Positions 2,885 through 63,381 of a stretch of 64,000 nt of DNA are shown piece by piece (the stretch's first letter is position 1; each line of letters starts with the position of its first letter). The position numbers and the translations under genes were made by a program. Origin of the DNA: a phage; the sequence record PZ154895.1; one strand, 5' to 3'. Under the pieces are notes generated by a model. The model saw only the letters and a program-made list of their open reading frames with translations. It did no database searches and was not told the DNA's origin.

Positions 2885-3202
2885 ATGACTGATAAACCCG
2901 AAATTAATGATGAAGTGGAAAAGCTTATTTCTTCTATTGAAGAAAAGAACCGTCTTGAAGCAGAAAGAAAAGCAAATAAGTTATTGTCTAAAAATAAACG
3001 CGAACTGAACCGTCTTTATAAGCACGCTCAGATTGCAGCTGAAAACAATAATTTCGCTCAATACGAATATGCTATCAAGAAAAGTCGGGATATTCTAAAA
3101 CAGCCATATAACGATGAACTCATTAGTATTCTTTGGAAGACTACTAGATCGCAGATTGAGGATATGATTGATGCTTACACGCGTAAAATTCAAGCGTCTT
3201 AA
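2885..3202 (+). CDS. hypothetical coiled-coil protein, 105 aa
   Basis: ORF starting 1 nt after upstream stop. Confidence 0.5.
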   Translation: MTDKPEINDEVEKLISSIEEKNRLEAERKANKLLSKNKRELNRLYKHAQIAAENNNFAQYEYAIKKSRDILKQPYNDELISILWKTTRSQIEDMIDAYTRKIQAS

Positions 3203-3374
3203 AATTAATGCAGGATTTACTGAATCTTTGAATGGTCATCTTTGCGTGAAAATTTCTGAAAAAGAATACCATGATAGTTCAATTAAAGAAGTTAATCCTC
3301 CTATTGTAAGAGCAGACCCTAATATGAAAGTGTGGGTTGATTCCTATCAAGTCAAAAAATGGTGGCAGCTGTGA
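3168..3374 (+). CDS. hypothetical protein, 68 aa
   Basis: Six-frame ORF overlapping upstream ORF by 35 nt. Confidence 0.3.
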   Translation: MMLTRVKFKRLKINAGFTESLNGHLCVKISEKEYHDSSIKEVNPPIVRADPNMKVWVDSYQVKKWWQL

Positions 3375-3377
3375 AAG

Positions 3378-3551
3378 ATGAACACCCAGACTTCTGAAAT
3401 AGATTATAATAAAATTCGTTCCTCTAAAGTAGAAATGATGAGGCGCTTTAAAGAGTCTCATGATAAAGCTAAAGCAGAAGGAACTATAACACATAAACGT
3501 ATAAAATTTAGAAGCTCTAATGAGCCTCTGTATGGCGTATTATGTGGATAG
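3378..3551 (+). CDS. hypothetical basic protein, 57 aa
   Basis: ATG 3378 to TAG 3549-3551, immediately followed by terminator; not in ORF track (under 60 aa). Confidence 0.3.
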   Translation: MNTQTSEIDYNKIRSSKVEMMRRFKESHDKAKAEGTITHKRIKFRSSNEPLYGVLCG

Positions 3552-3570
3552 GAGCTTCGGCTCCTATATT
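3551..3570 (+). terminator. intrinsic terminator GGAGC-TTCG-GCTCC
   Basis: 5-bp stem, UUCG loop, T/A-rich tail. Confidence 0.6.
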
Positions 3571-3617
3571 GCTTTACAAATTTTTGGTAAAATAAACCAA
3601 AACAATGAGGATATTAA

Positions 3618-4820
3618 ATGAAAGTATGCATTTTTATGGCTCGAGGTCTTGAAGGTTGTGGCGTAACTAAATTTTCTCTTGAGCAACGTGATTGGTTTAT
3701 TAAAAATGGTCATGAAGTAACTTTGGTTTATGCTAAAGATAAATCATTTACTCGTAATTGCGCACATGATTATAAGTCATTTTCAATTCCGGTTTTATTG
3801 GCAAAAGAATACGATAAAACACTTAAGTTGGTAAATGATTGTGATATTCTAATTATCAATTCAGTTCCTGCTACTTCAGTAGAAGAAGACACTATTAATA
3901 ACTATAAAAAAATTATTGATAACATTAAACCTTCAGTTCGTGTTGTAGTTTATCAGCATGACCATTCTTCTCTTTCTTTGCGCCGAAATTTGGGATTAGA
4001 AGAAACTGTTCGTCGAGCTGATGTTATTTTTAGTCATTCTGATAATGGTGATTTTAATAAAGTTCTGATGAAAGAATGGTATCCGGAAACTGTTTCTCTG
4101 TTTGATGATATTGAAGAAGCACCGACCGTATATAACTTTCAGCCTCCTATGGATATTGCGAAGGTTCGATCAACTTACTGGAAAGATGTTTCTGAAATTA
4201 ACATGAATATCAACCGTTGGATTGGTCGTACTACTACATGGAAAGGCTTTTATCAGATGTTTGATTTTCACGAAAAACATCTTAAACCTGCAGGACTAAG
4301 TACTATTATGGAAGGTCTGGAACGTTCTCCAGCGTTCATTCCTATTAAAGAAAAAGGAATTCCATACGAGTATTATCGTCTTCATCAAGTAGACCAAATT
4401 AAAATTGCTCCTAATTTGCCAACGCAAATTCTCGACCGTTATGTAAATAGCGAAATGCTTGAACGCATGAGTAAATCCGGATTTGGTTATCAGCTGAGTA
4501 AATTAGATAAAAAATATCTACAACGTTCTTTAGAATATACTCATCTCGAGCTTGGTGCATGCGGAACAATTCCAGTATTTTGGAAATCTACTGGCGAAAA
4601 TTTAAAATTCCGTGTTGATAATACTCCGTTAATTTCTCATGATAGCGGTATCGTTTGGTTTGATGAAAATGACATGGAATCAACATTTGAGCGTATTAAA
4701 GAACTGTCATCTGACCGAGCTCTTTATGACCGTGAACGCGAAAAAGCTTATGAATTTTTGTATCAGCATCAAGATTCAAGCTTCTGCTTTAAAGAACAGT
4801 TTGACATTATTACAAAATAA
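3618..4820 (+). CDS. a-gt: DNA alpha-glucosyltransferase
   Basis: 400 aa; near-identical along its length to T4 alpha-gt as recalled (ends ...SSFCFKEQFDIITK). Confidence 0.95.
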   Translation: MKVCIFMARGLEGCGVTKFSLEQRDWFIKNGHEVTLVYAKDKSFTRNCAHDYKSFSIPVLLAKEYDKTLKLVNDCDILIINSVPATSVEEDTINNYKKIIDNIKPSVRVVVYQHDHSSLSLRRNLGLEETVRRADVIFSHSDNGDFNKVLMKEWYPETVSLFDDIEEAPTVYNFQPPMDIAKVRSTYWKDVSEINMNINRWIGRTTTWKGFYQMFDFHEKHLKPAGLSTIMEGLERSPAFIPIKEKGIPYEYYRLHQVDQIKIAPNLPTQILDRYVNSEMLERMSKSGFGYQLSKLDKKYLQRSLEYTHLELGACGTIPVFWKSTGENLKFRVDNTPLISHDSGIVWFDENDMESTFERIKELSSDRALYDREREKAYEFLYQHQDSSFCFKEQFDIITK

Positions 4821-4838
4821 AGGGCTTCGGCCCTTTAG
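4821..4838 (+). terminator. intrinsic terminator AGGGC-TTCG-GCCCT
   Basis: Directly after a-gt stop. Confidence 0.75.
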
Positions 4839-4859: not shown

Positions 4860-5000
4860 ATGATATTTCTTGGATATGTGATACTTTTTCTAGCGTTTTA
4901 TTTGTTCACCAGAGCATGTTGGATTGGGTTCTTTAGTACTCCAGATGGATTTATTTCAATAATTTTATTTTGCATTTCAATGACGGTTCTTGATATATGA
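4860..5000 (+). CDS. hypothetical small hydrophobic protein, 46 aa
   Basis: GGAG RBS, ATG 4860; single predicted TM helix; not in track. Confidence 0.3.
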   Translation: MIFLGYVILFLAFYLFTRACWIGFFSTPDGFISIILFCISMTVLDI

Positions 5001-5620
5001 AAAAATATATAACTTATTTAACAATATATAGTGGAGATAAACTTCCTCCTTTTTATATTGGATCTACATCTTTAGACAGGCATTTAGCCGGATATCATGG
5101 ATCAGTTTTATCTAAAAAGTATAAGAAAATTTATAATGAAGAACTTTCAAATAACCCACATTTATTTGATTCATGCATTTTAGATGAATTTGATACACGC
5201 GAAGAAGCTATTAAATGCGAGCTATATTATCAACGTTTGCATGATGCGGTTAAAAATCCATTATTCTTTAATATGTCATATGCTGCTCCAAAAGGTTCAT
5301 TTGGAAGAGATATTAAAGGACAAAATCATCCATTATATGGTTCTCATAATTGTAAAGGAAACATACATTCACATGACCCATTAACAGGAAAATCTGCCTT
5401 TTTACCGTATATTCCAGAAGGTTATGTAAAAGGAAGGTCAAATAAATTTAAAGCTTCATCACATAATAAAGGTAAAAAATGGTATAATAACGGAGTTAAG
5501 CAAATGTTATGTCATGAACCTCCTGGTCCTGAATGGACAAAAGGAAAAATTAAAGAACTAGTTTCAAAAGCAGCTAAATTAGGATGGAAAAGACACCATG
5601 AAAATACTAAACTTGGGTGA
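4997..5620 (+). CDS. Seg-like (degenerate GIY-YIG) freestanding endonuclease
   Basis: 207 aa; N-terminal ITYL...PPFYIGST...R..H block and E..YYQ..NP.FFN block; paralogous to ORF 61737-62369. Confidence 0.5.
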   Translation: MKKYITYLTIYSGDKLPPFYIGSTSLDRHLAGYHGSVLSKKYKKIYNEELSNNPHLFDSCILDEFDTREEAIKCELYYQRLHDAVKNPLFFNMSYAAPKGSFGRDIKGQNHPLYGSHNCKGNIHSHDPLTGKSAFLPYIPEGYVKGRSNKFKASSHNKGKKWYNNGVKQMLCHEPPGPEWTKGKIKELVSKAAKLGWKRHHENTKLG

Positions 5621-6617
5621 TTGGCATTTAGGCGTTAAAGCTGATGATGAATGGATTCGCGGTATTCAAATTGATGGAATTAAGCAAGCGATAGAATATT
5701 CTAAGAAAAATGGAATTACTGTATGGATTCAATACGGTGATATTTTTGATGTACGAAAAGCGATCACGCATAAAACTATGGAGTTTGCCCGTGAAATAGT
5801 TCAAATGCTTGATGCCGCTGGAATCACATTACATACTATTGTAGGAAATCACGATCTCCACTATAAAAATGTAATGCATCCAAATGCTTCTACTGAGCTT
5901 TTGGCTAAATATCCTAATGTTAAAGTATATGATAAGCCTACTACAGTAGATTTTGACGGATGTTTGATTGATTTAATTCCTTGGATGTGTGAAGAAAATA
6001 CCGGTGAAATTCTTGAACACATCAAAACTTCATCTGCTTCTTTTTGTGTCGGTCACTGGGAGCTGAATGGATTTTATTTTTATAAAGGAATGAAATCTCA
6101 CGGTCTTGAACCTGATTTCCTTAAGACTTATAAAGAGGTGTGGTCTGGTCACTTCCATACTATCTCTGAGGCTGCTAACGTCAGATATATTGGGACACCA
6201 TGGACACTAACTGCAGGTGACGAGAATGACCCTCGTGGGTTCTGGGTGTTTGATACAGAAACAGAACGAATGGAATTTATTCCAAACAACACTACCTGGC
6301 ATCGTCGAATTCAATATCCATTTAAGGGAAAAATTGACTATAAAGATTTTACAAATCTATCAGTGCGTGTTATAGTAACTGAAGTAGACAAAAATCTAAC
6401 GAAGTTCGAATCTGAACTAGAAAAAGTTGTGCATTCATTACGAGTTGTGTCAAAGATTGATAACTCTGTCGAGTCAGATGATAGTGAAGAAGTTGAAGTT
6501 CAATCTCTTCAGACATTGATGGAAGAATACATTAATGCAATTCCAGACATCACTGATTCTGACCGTGAAGCACTTATTCAATATGCAAATCAGTTATATG
6601 TAGAGGCAACACAATGA
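5598..6617 (+). CDS. 47: gp47 recombination nuclease subunit (SbcD/Mre11-like)
   Basis: 339 aa; phosphoesterase motifs (GDWHLG, GNHD, GHWE, GHFH); synteny with gene 46. Confidence 0.93.
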   Translation: MKILNLGDWHLGVKADDEWIRGIQIDGIKQAIEYSKKNGITVWIQYGDIFDVRKAITHKTMEFAREIVQMLDAAGITLHTIVGNHDLHYKNVMHPNASTELLAKYPNVKVYDKPTTVDFDGCLIDLIPWMCEENTGEILEHIKTSSASFCVGHWELNGFYFYKGMKSHGLEPDFLKTYKEVWSGHFHTISEAANVRYIGTPWTLTAGDENDPRGFWVFDTETERMEFIPNNTTWHRRIQYPFKGKIDYKDFTNLSVRVIVTEVDKNLTKFESELEKVVHSLRVVSKIDNSVESDDSEEVEVQSLQTLMEEYINAIPDITDSDREALIQYANQLYVEATQ

Positions 6618-7064: not shown

Positions 7065-8749
7065 AGAATTTTAAACTAAACCGAGTTAGGTATCAAAATA
7101 TAATGTCAGTAGGTGGAAATCCTATTGACATTCAACTAGATAAGGTTCAAAAAACTCTTATTACTGGGCGAAATGGTGGTGGTAAGTCTACTATGTTAGA
7201 AGCCATCACATTTGGGCTTTTTGGCAAGCCATTTCGTGATGTAAAGAAAGGTCAATTAATAAACAGCACAAATAAGAAAGAACTTTTAGTTGAACTGTGG
7301 ATGGAATATGATGAGAAAAAGTACTATATCAAAAGAGGACAAAAACCAAACGTTTTCGAAATCACCGTTAACGGTACACGTCTTAATGAATCTGCCAGCA
7401 GTAAAGATTTCCAAGCAGAATTTGAACAGCTTATCGGAATGTCATATGCCAGTTTCAAGCAGATTGTTGTCCTTGGTACAGCAGGGTATACCCCTTTCAT
7501 GGGTTTGTCGACCCCTGCGCGAAGAAAGCTTGTGGAAGACCTGCTCGAGGTAGGAACATTAGCTGAAATGGATAAGCTTAATAAAGCACTAATACGTGAA
7601 TTAAATTCACAAAACCAAGTGCTTGATGTTAAAAAAGATAGTATTATCCAACAAATTAAAATATATAATGATAACGTTGAACGCCAGAAAAAATTAACTG
7701 GTGATAACCTTACTCGTCTGCAGAACATGTATGATGATTTGGCAAAAGAAGCTAGAACGTTAAAATCGGAAATAGAAGAAGCTAATGAAAGATTAGTTAA
7801 TATTGTTTTGGATGAAGACCCGACTGATGCATTTAATAAAATCGGTCAAGAAGCATTTTTAATTAAATCAAAAATTGACTCGTATAATAAAGTCATTAAT
7901 ATGTATCACGAAGGTGGATTATGTCCAACCTGTTTGTCACAATTAAGTTCCGGTGATAAAGTTGTTTCTAAAATTAAAGATAAAGTTTCTGAATGCACGC
8001 ATTCATTTGAACAGCTTTCAACACATCGTGATAATTTAAAAGTTCTTGTTGATGAATACCGAGATAATATTAAAACCCAGCAGACGTTGGCAAATGATAT
8101 TCGCAATAAAAAGCAATCCTTAATCACGACGGTAGATAAAGCTAAAAAAGTTAAAGCGGCTATAGAAAAAGCATCATCTGAGTTTATTGACCATGCTGAT
8201 GAAATAGCACTGCTTCAAGAAGAACTTGATAAAATTGTTAAGACAAAAACTAATTTAGTAATGGAAAAATACCACAGAGGAATTTTGACTGATATGCTCA
8301 AAGATTCTGGTATTAAAGGTGCTATTATTAAAAAGTACATTCCATTATTTAATAAGCAGATTAACCATTATCTTAAAATAATGGAAGCGGATTATGTGTT
8401 TACATTAGATGAAGAATTTAATGAAACAATTAAATCCCGTGGTCGTGAAGATTTTAGTTATGCTTCATTTAGTCAAGGTGAAAAAGCACGAATTGATATT
8501 GCTCTTTTATTTACTTGGCGTGATATTGCTGAAAAAGTTTCAGGTGTTAAAATAAGCTGTTTATTTCTTGATGAAGTATATGACGGTGCATTTGATGCTG
8601 AAGGTATTAAAAATGTAGCTAAAATTTTAGATGGTTTGAAGGATACCAACTTCTTCATAATTTCGCATAAAGACCATGACCCACAAGAATATGGTCAGCA
8701 TATTCAGATGGAAAAAGTTGGTAGATTTAGTTTAGCTAAGATTAGCTAG
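7061..8749 (+). CDS. 46: gp46 recombination nuclease subunit (SbcC/Rad50-like ATPase)
   Basis: 562 aa, GTG start; Walker A GRNGGGKST, zinc hook CPTC, coiled coil, Walker B LFLDE. Confidence 0.93.
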   Translation: MKNFKLNRVRYQNIMSVGGNPIDIQLDKVQKTLITGRNGGGKSTMLEAITFGLFGKPFRDVKKGQLINSTNKKELLVELWMEYDEKKYYIKRGQKPNVFEITVNGTRLNESASSKDFQAEFEQLIGMSYASFKQIVVLGTAGYTPFMGLSTPARRKLVEDLLEVGTLAEMDKLNKALIRELNSQNQVLDVKKDSIIQQIKIYNDNVERQKKLTGDNLTRLQNMYDDLAKEARTLKSEIEEANERLVNIVLDEDPTDAFNKIGQEAFLIKSKIDSYNKVINMYHEGGLCPTCLSQLSSGDKVVSKIKDKVSECTHSFEQLSTHRDNLKVLVDEYRDNIKTQQTLANDIRNKKQSLITTVDKAKKVKAAIEKASSEFIDHADEIALLQEELDKIVKTKTNLVMEKYHRGILTDMLKDSGIKGAIIKKYIPLFNKQINHYLKIMEADYVFTLDEEFNETIKSRGREDFSYASFSQGEKARIDIALLFTWRDIAEKVSGVKISCLFLDEVYDGAFDAEGIKNVAKILDGLKDTNFFIISHKDHDPQEYGQHIQMEKVGRFSLAKIS

Positions 8750-9458
8750 GTTTATATTTACAGTTATCATTATGCCATCTTGATAAATTTCCGAAAGTGG
8801 TAACTTTACCACAATGGACGCAAGTACCAGTCTTTTCAGTTTTCTTGCGTCCATTTGGATTTTTCTTGCAGAAATTTCTATGCGCTGCGATAACGCATTT
8901 CTTGCCTATCATTCCACAGAATTCGCAGGATGTTTCTTCAAGAACGATTGCTTTAAGCCCGTTTGAGATATTATTTCTGTGTTCTTTAGACATTGGTGGT
9001 CTAACTTTAGGATTAGGGTGATTTGGACAGTTATCAAAATGCCAACGATTCATATTCCCGCTTAATCCAGACTTACCGCAATGAGGACAAGTTAGTCTTG
9101 CTTTATTAGCTACTGCATCAGACATTTTCTTTCGTGTCTCCTGGGAGAATTCTTTGTTCTTTTCTATTTCCCAGAGTTTACGACGAATCCAACCGAAAGT
9201 TTTATTGTTGCGTTTAGCGTATTTCGTGGAAACTGTCATCATGTTAGCAGCATAGACTAATTTTGGTTCAGAAGGATAAATTTTTACTAAAAGTTGATGA
9301 GCTACATAGTGCTCTTCTGGCGTTAAATCTACTAAGTTTGAAGCATCATCACTACCGTTTAAACAGCGTGGTATAATGTGATGAGATTCAGTATAGCAAT
9401 CAAGTTTTCGAGATTTAGCATTAGAGATTAACTTTTCATAAATTAGTTTATAATTCAT
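8742..9458 (-). CDS. HNH homing endonuclease with three C-terminal CxxC...W..DNC zinc-finger repeats
   Basis: 238 aa; HNH motif ESHHIIPRCLNGSDDASNLVDLTPEEHYVAH; opposite strand to flanking genes. Confidence 0.7.
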   Translation of the reverse strand: MNYKLIYEKLISNAKSRKLDCYTESHHIIPRCLNGSDDASNLVDLTPEEHYVAHQLLVKIYPSEPKLVYAANMMTVSTKYAKRNNKTFGWIRRKLWEIEKNKEFSQETRKKMSDAVANKARLTCPHCGKSGLSGNMNRWHFDNCPNHPNPKVRPPMSKEHRNNISNGLKAIVLEETSCEFCGMIGKKCVIAAHRNFCKKNPNGRKKTEKTGTCVHCGKVTTFGNLSRWHNDNCKYKPS

Positions 9459-9509
9459 AACATATCCTTTTGATACAGCGAGTGATAAACATATTTATAC
9501 GGAGGAACT

Positions 9510-60769: not shown

Positions 60770-61085
60770 TATTCGTCCGGTCGATGAGACCGGTCTTTCA
60801 GAAAAAGAACTTTCAATTAAGAAAGAAAAGGATGAAATAGCAAAACTTCTTGACCGTCAAGAAAATGGATTTATTATTGAAAAAATGGTAGAAGAATTTG
60901 GAATGAGTTATCTTGAAGCTACAACAGCATTCTTGGAAGAAAATTCTATTCCTGAAACTCAATTTGCTAAATTTATTCCTTCGGGTATAATTGAAAAAAT
61001 TCAGTCAGAAGCTATCGACGAAAATCTTTTACGTCCTTCTGTTGTTCGTTGTGAAAAAACTAATACATTAGATTTTCTACTATGA
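60747..61085 (+). CDS. 33: gp33 late transcription co-activator
   Basis: 112 aa from MTQFSLNDIRPVDETGLSEKEL...; track start trimmed. Confidence 0.88.
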   Translation: MTQFSLNDIRPVDETGLSEKELSIKKEKDEIAKLLDRQENGFIIEKMVEEFGMSYLEATTAFLEENSIPETQFAKFIPSGIIEKIQSEAIDENLLRPSVVRCEKTNTLDFLL

Positions 61086-61735
61086 TTAAACTCCGCATGC
61101 CTGCTGGTGGTGAAAGATACATTGATGGTAAATCAGTTTATAAATTATACTTAATGATAAAACAACATATGAATGGAAAGTATGATGTAATTAAGTATAA
61201 TTGGTGCATGCGGGTGTCTGATGCCGCTTATCAAAAGCGAATGGATAAGTATTTTTTCCAGAAGTTATCAGAAAAATATAAATTAAAGGAACTTGCTTTA
61301 ATCTTTATAAGCAATCTTGTTGCTAACCAAGATGCTTGGATTGGTGACATCTCTGACGCTGATGCACTTGTGTTTTATCGTGAATATATCGGACGCTTAA
61401 AGCAAATTAAATTTAAGTTTGAAGAAGATATTCGCAACATTTATTATTTTAGTAAAAAAGTTGAAGTTTCTGCTTTTAAAGAAATTTTTGAATATAATCC
61501 AAAAGTTCAATCAAGTTATATTTTTAAACTACTTCAATCGAATATAATTTCGTTTGAGACGTTTATCTTGCTTGATTCGTTTTTAAATATAATTGATAAA
61601 CATGATGAACAGACTGATAATTTAGTCTGGAATAATTATTCTATAAAGTTAAAAGCTTATAGAAAAATTTTAAATATTGATTCACAGAAAGCTAAAAGTG
61701 TTTTCATTGAAACTGTGAAATCCTGTAAGTATTAA
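61082..61735 (+). CDS. 59: gp59 helicase loader
   Basis: 217 aa; MIKLRMPAGGERYIDGKSVYKLYLMIKQHMNGKYDVIKYNW... Confidence 0.93.
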   Translation: MIKLRMPAGGERYIDGKSVYKLYLMIKQHMNGKYDVIKYNWCMRVSDAAYQKRMDKYFFQKLSEKYKLKELALIFISNLVANQDAWIGDISDADALVFYREYIGRLKQIKFKFEEDIRNIYYFSKKVEVSAFKEIFEYNPKVQSSYIFKLLQSNIISFETFILLDSFLNIIDKHDEQTDNLVWNNYSIKLKAYRKILNIDSQKAKSVFIETVKSCKY

Positions 61736-61736
61736 T

Positions 61737-62369
61737 ATGAATATAGTATATTGGTTTACATTTGAAGACCGTGTCAAAAATAAGACTCCGCCGTACTACT
61801 ATATCGGCAGTAAATTAAATTGCTCATTTGAGAATGGAATAATATATGACTCTTCCGGAAAGGAATACTGGAGCTCATGTAAACAAAAAAGATTTTTGAA
61901 TGCGGTAATGCTTCAAAAACCGAGCGTTAAAATAATTCAAATTGATGATGACTTGGATGTTATTGAAGCAGAACGAAAATACCAACTTGAAGTAAATGCC
62001 AGAGATAATCCAGACTATTTCAATCTGGTATATGCTGGTGGTGGATTTGGTGTGAGTGGTGAAACTCATCCAGCCAAAGACCCGGAAGTTAGAGAGCATA
62101 TGAGATTGGCTAATTATATGAACCGTGACGATTTTAGACCTTGGAAAACATCACGAGCTAATATAGAGTCTTGGAAATTATCTCATATTGCTTACGAGAA
62201 TTATGTGTTATTATTATCCTCTAATCTGTACGGTAAAACTCCTGGATGGCGAAGAGTTAGAGGTAATATAAATATAACTGATGCAACTGCTAAATCGATG
62301 GTAAAGTATTTCAACTCAGGTTGGATACCTCTCGAAGACCCAGAGTATTGCGAATTATGCCAGCTATGA
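61737..62369 (+). CDS. Seg-like (degenerate GIY-YIG) freestanding endonuclease at the segG position
   Basis: 210 aa between 59 and 32; IVYWF...PPYYYIGSK and EAERKYQLEVNARDNPDYFN blocks; paralogue of ORF 4997-5620. Confidence 0.5.
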   Translation: MNIVYWFTFEDRVKNKTPPYYYIGSKLNCSFENGIIYDSSGKEYWSSCKQKRFLNAVMLQKPSVKIIQIDDDLDVIEAERKYQLEVNARDNPDYFNLVYAGGGFGVSGETHPAKDPEVREHMRLANYMNRDDFRPWKTSRANIESWKLSHIAYENYVLLLSSNLYGKTPGWRRVRGNINITDATAKSMVKYFNSGWIPLEDPEYCELCQL

Positions 62370-62424: not shown

Positions 62425-63381
62425 ATGTTTAAACGTAAATCTACTGCTGAACTCGCTGCACAAATGGCTAAACTGGCTGGAAATAAAGGTGGTTTTTCTT
62501 CTGAAGATAAAGGCGAGTGGAAACTGAAACTCGATAATGCGGGTAACGGTCAAGCAGTAATTCGTTTTCTTCCGTCTAAAAATGATGAACAAGCACCATT
62601 CGCACTTCTTGTAAATCACGGTTTCAAGAAAAATGGTAAATGGTATATTGAAACATGCTCATCTACCTACGGTGATTACGATTCTTGCCCAGTATGTCAG
62701 TACATCAGTAAAAATGATTTGTACAACACTGACAATAAAGAGTACAGTCTTGTTAAACGTAAAACTTCTTACTGGGCTAACATTCTTGTTGTAAAAGACC
62801 CGGCTGCTCCAGAAAATGAAGGTAAAGTATTTAAATACCGTTTTGGTAAGAAAATCTGGGATAAAATCAATGCAATGATTGCAGTTGATGTTGAAATGGG
62901 TGAAACTCCGGTTGATGTAACTTGTCCGTGGGAAGGTGCTAACTTTGTACTGAAAGTTAAACAAGTTTCTGGTTTTAGTAACTACGACGAATCTAAATTC
63001 CTGAATCAATCTGCGATTCCAAACATTGATGATGAATCTTTCCAGAAAGAACTGTTCGAACAAATGGTTGACCTTTCTGAAATGACTTCTAAAGATAAAT
63101 TCAAATCGTTTGAAGAACTGAGCACTAAGTTCAGTCAAGTTATGGGAACTGCTGCTATGGGTGGTGCCGCAGCAACTGCCGCTAAGAAAGCCGATAAAGT
63201 TGCTGATGATTTGGATGCATTCAATGTTGATGACTTCAAAACAAAAACTGAAGATGATTTTATGAGCTCAAGCTCTGGCAGTTCATCTAGTGCTGATGAC
63301 ACGGACCTGGATGACCTTTTGAATGGCTGTTTACATCCTTGTCCTTCCGTGGTACTATACAACTATCGGCAATACTGCTGA
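62425..63381 (+). CDS. 32: gp32 single-stranded DNA binding protein with non-canonical C-terminal tail
   Basis: 318 aa; matches T4 gp32 through ...[18 protein letters not shown], then 18 extra residues [18 protein letters not shown] read through an early-promoter cassette. Confidence 0.88.
63329..63358 (+). promoter_or_regulatory. early promoter cassette embedded in the 3' end of the gene 32 ORF
   Basis: GTTTAC 63329-63334, 18 nt, TGGTACTATAC; near-identical to cassette at 15901-15945. Confidence 0.55.

Follow-up and report, generated by a model that had tools for sequence, protein, structure and literature searches.

The 64,000-nucleotide stretch of phage DNA analyzed here (record PZ154895.1; hereafter the window) is likely to carry two homing endonuclease genes of the Seg (GIY-YIG) family of T4, which are free-standing and independent of each other: segG and an uncharacterized gene, ORF1, which is borne on a 601-bp cassette at the start of gene 47 and would home by a mechanism that we propose by analogy with SegA-SegG. 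Both ORF1 and segG are ordinary mobile elements of T4-type phages; segG is already known, and ORF1 is new and uncharacterized, no published description of the element having been found in a literature search.

Results

Genomic context of the two genes

In megablast, hundreds of phages of Escherichia, Shigella, and Yersinia match the window with 97-99% identity, which assigns it to the genus Tequatrovirus (T4-like phages). Its genes are arranged in the order α-gt, 47.1, (ORF1), 47, 46.2, 46.1, 46 ... rnh, dsbA, 33, 59, (ORF2), 32, and the + strand of the window corresponds to the strand of T4 early-gene transcription. A previous, sequence-only reading had described two paralogous, degenerate Seg-like GIY-YIG endonuclease genes, one between α-gt and gene 47 and the other between genes 59 and 32, where T4 carries segG. 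Two ORFs indeed lie at these places, ORF1 at 4997-5620 (+ strand, 207 aa) and ORF2 at 61737-62369 (+ strand, 210 aa). The left-hand neighbor region of ORF1 contains α-gt (3618-4820) and, more precisely, ORF1 is located between gene 47.1 (4860-5000, + strand; PHROG 6693, E = 1.5e-31), which lies directly 5' of it and encodes a predicted membrane protein of 46 aa, and gene 47 (5598-6617, + strand), which encodes an Mre11/SbcD-like recombination nuclease subunit and is the presumed target gene of ORF1. The 5' and 3' neighbors of ORF2 are gene 59 (61082-61735) and gene 32 (62425-63381), respectively. A perfect hairpin, AAAGGGC-TTCG-GCCCTTT, is found at 4820-4837, right after the stop codon of α-gt and before 47.1, and a terminator annotated in the record of phage fPS-90 overlaps the α-gt stop codon at the corresponding place; the hairpin may limit read-through into 47.1-ORF1-47.

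ORF2 is identified by its sequence as segG

Judging from its sequence, ORF2 is T4 segG itself (T4 gene 32.1; PHROG 7504, E = 1.4e-132), an already known gene about which the window holds nothing new. The identity between ORF2 and T4 segG is 98.9% at the nucleotide level and 98.6% at the amino acid level (207/210 residues), and the slot between genes 59 and 32 is the one given to segG in the T4 annotation. The earlier description of the ORF as sitting where T4 carries segG was therefore right about the slot and understated the identity of the gene. SegG is an experimentally active GIY-YIG endonuclease (PMC2988022, Table 1), and calling it degenerate is not borne out in functional terms; it cuts gene 32 of phages that do not have segG and, in crosses between T4 and T2, is over-inherited (PMC2988022). 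The middle and late promoters of T4 gene 32 are embedded in segG (PMC2988022), and in the window the T4 late-promoter consensus TATAAATA is present at 62267-62274 (+ strand), inside segG and upstream of gene 32. The gene occurs in 142 phage records, being itself a presence/absence polymorphism.

The 3' end of the neighboring gene 32 (63320-63381) is unusual in that about 77 nt fewer are found there than in T4, and the next ~17 nt also differ. The stretch that is missing relative to T4 comprises the last two codons and the stop codon of gene 32, a hairpin terminator (GGGGACC...GGTCCCC followed by a T-run), and the spacer to the frd.3 promoter, with the result that the gp32 ORF runs on to 318 aa and its T4-type ending ...DDLLNDL is replaced. 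All of the 30 best-matching phages align in two pieces and have ~75 nt more than the window at this end, and the change looks, from these alignments, either private to this genome or like an assembly error. If it is real, the extension of gp32 could matter, given that the acidic C terminus of the protein mediates protein contacts.

A 601-bp insertion at the start of gene 47

In both T4 and T2, from which ORF1 is absent, genes 47.1 and 47 share an ATGA, in which the stop codon of the former and the start codon of the latter overlap. Comparison with the α-gt-to-47 interval of T4, which the sequence-only reading had proposed as a check, shows that the two sequences are identical on the left as far as ...GATATATGAAAA and that identity resumes on the right with ATGAAAAT...; the window therefore contains an insertion of 601 bp, absent from T4, that carries ORF1 and is bounded by the 7-nt repeat ATGAAAA. 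The left copy of the repeat (4997-5003, + strand), at the edge of the insertion in the T4 alignments, contains the start codon of ORF1, and the right copy (5598-5604, + strand), inside the 3' end of ORF1, contains that of gene 47. The ORF1 start codon thus stands where T4 has that of gene 47 and shares ATGA with the TGA stop codon of gene 47.1, while a new start codon for gene 47 is formed 23 nt ahead of the stop of ORF1. The two genes overlap out of frame by these 23 nt (5598-5620), and the stop codon of ORF1 is the TGA found within the GGT GAT codons of gene 47.

No convincing promoter or terminator of its own was found for ORF1, the count of promoter-like sequences being lower than the expectation from shuffled sequences, and no late-promoter consensus TATAAATA occurs near it. 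From its sequence, ORF1 looks like a promoter-less cassette that rides on an existing transcript, as several T4 seg genes do. Sequences 95-100% identical to ORF1 are present in 69 deposited phage records, only about 13% of those of Tequatrovirus, and an uninterrupted T4-type junction is found in about 465. ORF1 is, as expected for a member of the Seg family, a free-standing cassette between conserved genes that is cleanly absent from some close relatives. Both ORF1 and segG are presence/absence polymorphisms among close relatives, as would be expected of elements driving local gene conversion, and the proposal of such a role in the sequence-only reading is supported by this distribution. Further copies were not detected in the window by tblastn with ORF1 and SegG as queries.

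ORF1 is a divergent Seg-family GIY-YIG protein

The sequence blocks on which the two ORFs had been linked are present, KLPPFYIGSTSL and CELYYQ...NPLFFN in ORF1 and KTPPYYYIGSKL and AERKYQ...NPDYFN in ORF2. BLASTP of ORF1 against ORF2 gives a single alignment of 109 residues with 28% identity (E = 1e-6 as a single comparison) that contains both blocks, and a profile of 35 ORF1 homologs matches the Glu-to-Asn half of ORF2 with 95.2% probability (E = 2.7e-8). The likeness is thus genuine and not confined to the N-terminal block, while the region common to the two proteins is the catalytic domain only. Among the T4 nucleases, BLASTP finds SegG as the best match of ORF1 (27.5% over 109 aa, E = 2e-5), followed by SegE (27.6% over 196 aa, E = 2e-4), so that its similarity to the two is about equal; nothing above noise was obtained with the HNH proteins MobB-MobE of T4. 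In addition, the ORF1 family and an alignment of SegA-SegE match in hhalign over 178 columns with a probability of 97.2% (E = 2.8e-11), meaning that both halves of ORF1 match these enzymes.

The only Pfam match of ORF1 is GIY-YIG (PF01541), with an E-value of 9e-4 and a score of 19.9 bits, which is below the gathering threshold of 22.6. SegG (ORF2) is not matched by the Pfam GIY-YIG model at all, and neither ORF has a match in NCBIfam. A domain search of the kind proposed in the sequence-only reading thus gives a match for ORF1 that falls short of the threshold and none for SegG. When the 35 homologs of ORF1 were searched, GIY-YIG was found at E <= 0.01 in 16 (best E-value, 2.4e-5) and NUMOD3 in 15. 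The sub-threshold score comes from the divergence of the subfamily, which the model scores poorly, and does not reflect the absence of a defining structural feature. Y7, Y20, I21, G22, S23, Y33, G35, E75, and N92 are invariant in the 35 homologs, whose identity to ORF1 goes down to 35%. The canonical Arg of GIY-YIG enzymes, ~8-10 residues after YIG, corresponds to R28 in ORF1, and R, K, or N occupies this column in the relatives; R68 is nearly invariant among the homologs.

An AlphaFold2 model of ORF1 built from the 35-sequence alignment has a mean pLDDT of 84; within residues 1-90, the means of the blocks are 89-98. Residues 1-100 (4997-5296, + strand) form the predicted GIY-YIG catalytic domain, which consists of strands 4-11, 19-25, and 57-65 and helices 26-30, 40-52, and 68-81; the three-stranded sheet bearing the GIY and YIG strands and flanked by helices, which defines the fold, is thus present in the model. 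The best matches of the model in the PDB are I-TevI, UvrC, and other GIY-YIG domains; in a Foldseek comparison, the catalytic domain of I-TevI accounted for all credible hits (probability 0.98-1.0). The likeness to I-TevI surfaced only in this fold comparison, as a sequence search of the PDB with the ORF1-family profile returned nothing at E <= 1. Residues 101-207 (5297-5620, + strand) make up the presumed DNA-binding half, where an NHPLYG NUMOD3-like element, two β-hairpins including GKKWYNNG, a short helix, and a disordered tail were recognized; neither a zinc finger nor a helix-turn-helix was detected in ORF1.

For five intact Tequatrovirus copies of ORF1, dN/dS is 0.02-0.08 (~0.05) in nine of the ten pairs, with dS up to 0.17, and the tenth pair, which is outside this range, is near-identical and differs at only three sites. 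Based on the profile and fold matches, the invariant residues, and the low dN/dS, ORF1 is therefore assigned to the Seg family as a selectively maintained GIY-YIG protein, for which endonuclease activity is predicted. The identity of both genes as Seg-type nucleases, as originally proposed, is upheld in this way for ORF1 and by the identity with segG for ORF2, while the word degenerate fits ORF1 only in the sense of its poor match to the Pfam model, and is at odds with its invariant Tyr/Tyr/Glu/Asn residues, predicted fold, and dN/dS of about 0.05.

A block of silent substitutions in gene 47 is linked to ORF1

Gene 47 of the window differs from that of T4 by four silent substitutions within 10 nt of codons 3-6 (5606-5615, + strand; T>A at 5606, T>C at 5607, T>C at 5612, and A>G at 5615), reading ATA CTA AAC TTG in place of ATT TTA AAT TTA. 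The block is present in all five intact ORF1-bearing loci that were read (the window, Killian, REP1, TadeuszReichstein, and fPS-90) and in KNP5, in which a run of N breaks up ORF1; about 68 of the 69 ORF1-bearing records keep it, based on a junction match of 98-100%. The partial copies of KNP1 and KNP5 were considered as decayed ORF1 and rejected, the gap being a run of N, i.e., an assembly gap. By contrast, the T4 form is seen in all nine empty-site Tequatrovirus loci that had not been picked for carrying the block, save for one of the four changes in RB14. A scan of IMG/VR with gp47 gave only empty-site loci for Tequatrovirus, and the ORF1-bearing loci were taken from GenBank phage records. 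In a haplotype table of 17 genomes, only the block is linked to ORF1 within +/-300 nt, and the other polymorphisms are reshuffled.

The two exceptional combinations are also found. Nine records, representing the eight phages SHFML-26, BCPSen_003, BCPEco_001, Ec_YwIITB1, PBM-1, UGKSEcP1, UGKSEcP2, and EPIMAM01, have the block without ORF1, and the junction in these phages is exactly the one that a deletion between the two ATGAAAA repeats would produce. Conversely, the sole copy of ORF1 seen beside a T4-type gene 47 allele is that of Escherichia phage ERS-1 (PP337211.1, 1501-2124), which contains several frameshifts; the record is flagged UNVERIFIED (UNVERIFIED_ORG) and is ridden with frameshifts that may be sequencing errors and not decay, and we kept this error-prone-looking copy only as a weak hint of decay. 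The four-change block is probably, as far as sequence comparison can tell, a cleavage-resistant allele, and we infer that ORF1-bearing loci with the block, the ERS-1 locus, loci having the block without ORF1, and empty T4-type loci are stages of the usual cycle of gain, decay, and loss. Because the block is no more than 17 nt (8-17 nt) from the insertion, the linkage could also be due to plain hitch-hiking or to a donor flank imported with the cassette. Selection on the overlapping tail of ORF1 could be another cause, as the block changes the tail to NTKLG from NFKFR. However, the tail (residues 194-207) has a pLDDT below 50, is disordered in the model, and is variable among relatives, which weakens this last alternative, though not hitch-hiking or import of the donor flank.

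Relatives of ORF1 are found beside gene 47 in other phages

All seven of the relatives checked that have an ORF1-type C-terminal half, with 50-78% identity in the alignment, are encoded directly 5' of the homologs of genes 47 and 46. The gene overlaps the start of gene 47 by 23 nt in Aeromonas phage L9-6, by 17 nt in a Logan contig represented by a protein cluster named for Klebsiella phage KP185, and by 14 nt in Erwinia phage FBB1; it abuts the start in Escherichia phage AV109, lies 121 nt upstream of it in Serratia phage LC53, and is directly upstream of gene 47 in IMG/VR loci L023 and L027. An out-of-frame arrangement with 0-23 nt of overlap is therefore seen in four of the five relatives with gene calls. 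The upstream neighbor varies among these loci (α-gt/47.1 or DUF2654-type genes), and gene 47 is the neighbor that all of them share. The phages with ORF1 or such a relative at this site come from several T4-like groups, with isolates on Escherichia/Shigella, Klebsiella, Serratia, Erwinia, and Aeromonas. The relatives with the ORF1-type C-terminal half end in x-E-N-(S/T/N), which is the gene 47 start ATGAAAAT read out of frame.

Relatives that resemble ORF1 in the catalytic domain only and have other C termini occupy different sites, namely those preceding gene 39 in Yersinia phage TG1 and gp53 in a metagenome-assembled genome. This pattern fits the modular design of GIY-YIG homing enzymes, composed of a nuclease part and a DNA-binding part. 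The 5' end of gene 47 encodes MKILNLGDWHLG in the window, and its conserved form, MKIL..GD(W/L)H.GVK, is phosphoesterase motif I; invariant sequence of this kind is a typical type of target for homing enzymes.

Other homing genes in the window

The HNH gene mentioned in the sequence-only reading exists at 8742-9458 (- strand) and encodes a Mob-type protein of 238 aa. ORF1 and the HNH gene flank the 47-46 operon, the former 5' and the latter 3' in antisense orientation, and the suggestion that such genes bracket recombination genes holds. The HNH gene lies just downstream of gene 46, whose end it overlaps by 8 nt, in a slot where T4 has nothing, and is found in 66 phage records; it is preceded by the late-promoter consensus TATAAATA at 9492-9499 (- strand). 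The N-terminal ~120 aa of its product show 43% identity to T4 MobB/MobE, and the C-terminal half has CxxC-rich repeats. No counterpart of T4 SegA-SegF, I-TevI, or I-TevII was found in the window, nor one of mobB; in T4, mobB lies between α-gt.2 and α-gt (region 3202-3618 of the window), segA between uvsX and β-gt, and segF between 56 and soc. The set of homing endonuclease genes in the window (ORF1, the HNH gene, and segG) therefore differs from that of T4, and the best-matching phage differs for each gene, which is a mosaic pattern.

Discussion

By analogy with SegA-SegG, ORF1 would be expressed from the 47.1-47 transcript and, upon co-infection with a phage bearing an empty T4-type 47.1/47 junction, its C-terminal half would bind the conserved 5' end of gene 47, near which the N-terminal GIY-YIG domain would cut the DNA. 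The break would then be repaired by the recombination-dependent replication of T4 with the ORF1-bearing genome as the template, and ORF1 would be copied into the recipient together with a short flank. The carrier genome would be shielded from its own enzyme by the insertion and by the four silent changes in codons 3-6. Indirect support for cleavage of alleles that lack ORF1 comes from the use of one site in several other T4-like groups and from the linked four-change allele. Since the cuts made by Seg enzymes are frequently tens to hundreds of bases away from the insertion site, the true cleavage site of ORF1 may lie elsewhere than in these codons.

Comparison with known systems clarifies the position of ORF1 in the Seg family. 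ORF1 resembles SegG in the PPxYIGS and E..YQ...NP.xFN motifs, size, and free-standing, promoter-less layout, but differs in the C-terminal half, the insertion site, and the target gene, which is presumably 47 for ORF1 and is 32 for SegG, the identity of 28% being confined to the N-terminal 109 residues. With SegA-SegE, ORF1 is homologous almost from end to end, the YIG...GY.GS block, the Glu helix, the Asn residue, and a C-terminal W...G element all being included, and like these genes, especially segE, which lies between inh and uvsW, ORF1 is an intergenic cassette beside the gene that it presumably cuts. However, ORF1 is less than 30% identical to any of SegA-SegE, has a different presumed target, and has Y-x-T-Y-L-T-I-Y as the first motif in place of their consensus Y-x-Y-x-I-T-N. 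I-TevI, the endonuclease of the td intron, is the structural prototype of GIY-YIG homing enzymes. Unlike I-TevI, ORF1 is not encoded in an intron, and hhalign of the ORF1 family against I-TevI gave a non-significant probability of 3.5%. SegH and Hef of T4-related phages, reportedly described by Sandegren et al. in 2005, are likewise of the Seg or Mob type, with a fixed intergenic position in certain T-even relatives and no copy there in T4; their positions are the mobC and mobE slots near the nrd genes and not the 47.1/47 junction.

The resemblance of ORF1 to SegG might suggest that the two genes are true paralogs, which were duplicated in this genome lineage and then diverged. The unusual PP(F/Y)YIGS and E..YQ...NP.(F/Y)FN blocks common to both, together with the rank of SegG as the best BLASTP match of ORF1 among T4 nucleases (E = 2e-5), are what such an origin would leave. 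Nevertheless, we regard it as very improbable because the identity is only 28% and limited to the catalytic domain, while SegE matches ORF1 over 196 residues and the SegA-SegE profile over 178 columns; each gene occurs without the other in many phages (69 records for ORF1 and 142 for segG), and the gene 47 site is held by ORF1 relatives in other genera. On the sequence evidence, ORF1 and ORF2 are separate insertions of related mobile genes, with no duplication in this genome, and the term paralogous, as used in the sequence-only reading, is misleading. Even less credit can be given to the annotation of ORF1 as an HNH endonuclease, which is propagated in RefSeq and PHROG 10820: nothing favors it except the database labels themselves, whereas no HNH profile matches ORF1, its sole Pfam match is GIY-YIG, its fold matches are GIY-YIG domains, and comparison with T4 MobB-MobE yields only noise. 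The results on fold and profiles refute an HNH identity, and the label is wrong.

Two further explanations concern the state and the beneficiary of ORF1. It would be the relic of a homing endonuclease gene that has decayed and lost its catalytic activity if the sub-threshold Pfam score (with none for SegG) and the variation at the canonical Arg position were signs of lost function, and its persistence would then be explained by the difficulty of precise deletion, because the start codon and ribosome-loading region of gene 47 lie inside ORF1 and would favor its retention, as has been argued for other seg genes (PMC2988022). Such a relic is, however, improbable in view of the dN/dS of about 0.05 over the whole of ORF1 at dS values up to 0.17, the invariance of Tyr/Tyr/Glu/Asn in homologs down to 35% identity, and the high confidence with which the catalytic domain is modeled as a GIY-YIG fold; moreover, the sole disrupted copy seen is in the UNVERIFIED record of ERS-1. 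Alternatively, ORF1 might be kept mainly for the benefit of the phage, by excluding T4-type competitors through the cutting of gene 47 or by providing or tuning the translation of gene 47, with homing as a by-product. That the target region belongs to an essential recombination gene, that the promoter-less cassette is translationally linked to both 47.1 and 47, and that ORF1 is under strong purifying selection all agree with this idea, and marker exclusion is a known phenotype of SegF and SegG (PMC2988022). Yet only about 13% of Tequatrovirus records carry ORF1, phages with the empty site do well, and the eight phages that have the linked allele without ORF1 are as expected from selfish cycles of gain and loss. 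We therefore consider a primary role in phage fitness unlikely, though it deserves more weight than a dead relic; it differs from selfish homing in the beneficiary and not in the mechanism.

Within the preferred reading of ORF1 as a homing endonuclease gene, a more specific proposal can be made, about which we are still slightly more doubtful than convinced. It holds that the ORF1 lineage consists of Seg endonucleases that are specialized on the first few codons of gene 47, track this site across T4-like groups, and supply the translation-initiation region of gene 47; that the four-change block is a genuine immunity allele; and that the eight phages having the block without ORF1 and the one frameshifted copy represent a cycle of gain, decay, loss, and resistant empty site within one genus. 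If this is true, the lineage targets the gene for an Mre11-like nuclease that is needed to process the same breaks that ORF1 would make.

ORF1 would add an eighth, as yet uncharacterized Seg-type specificity to the toolkit of the T-even phages, the predicted target of which is the start of a well-studied essential gene. The distribution of ORF1 also constitutes a natural experiment, with 69 occupied sites, about 455 empty sites of the sensitive type, and eight phages that combine an empty site with the linked allele, which can be used for measuring homing, the length of co-conversion tracts, and target-site immunity. For the engineering of Tequatrovirus phages and their use in therapy cocktails, the point of interest is that such genes bias the survival of alleles around recombination genes in mixed infections.
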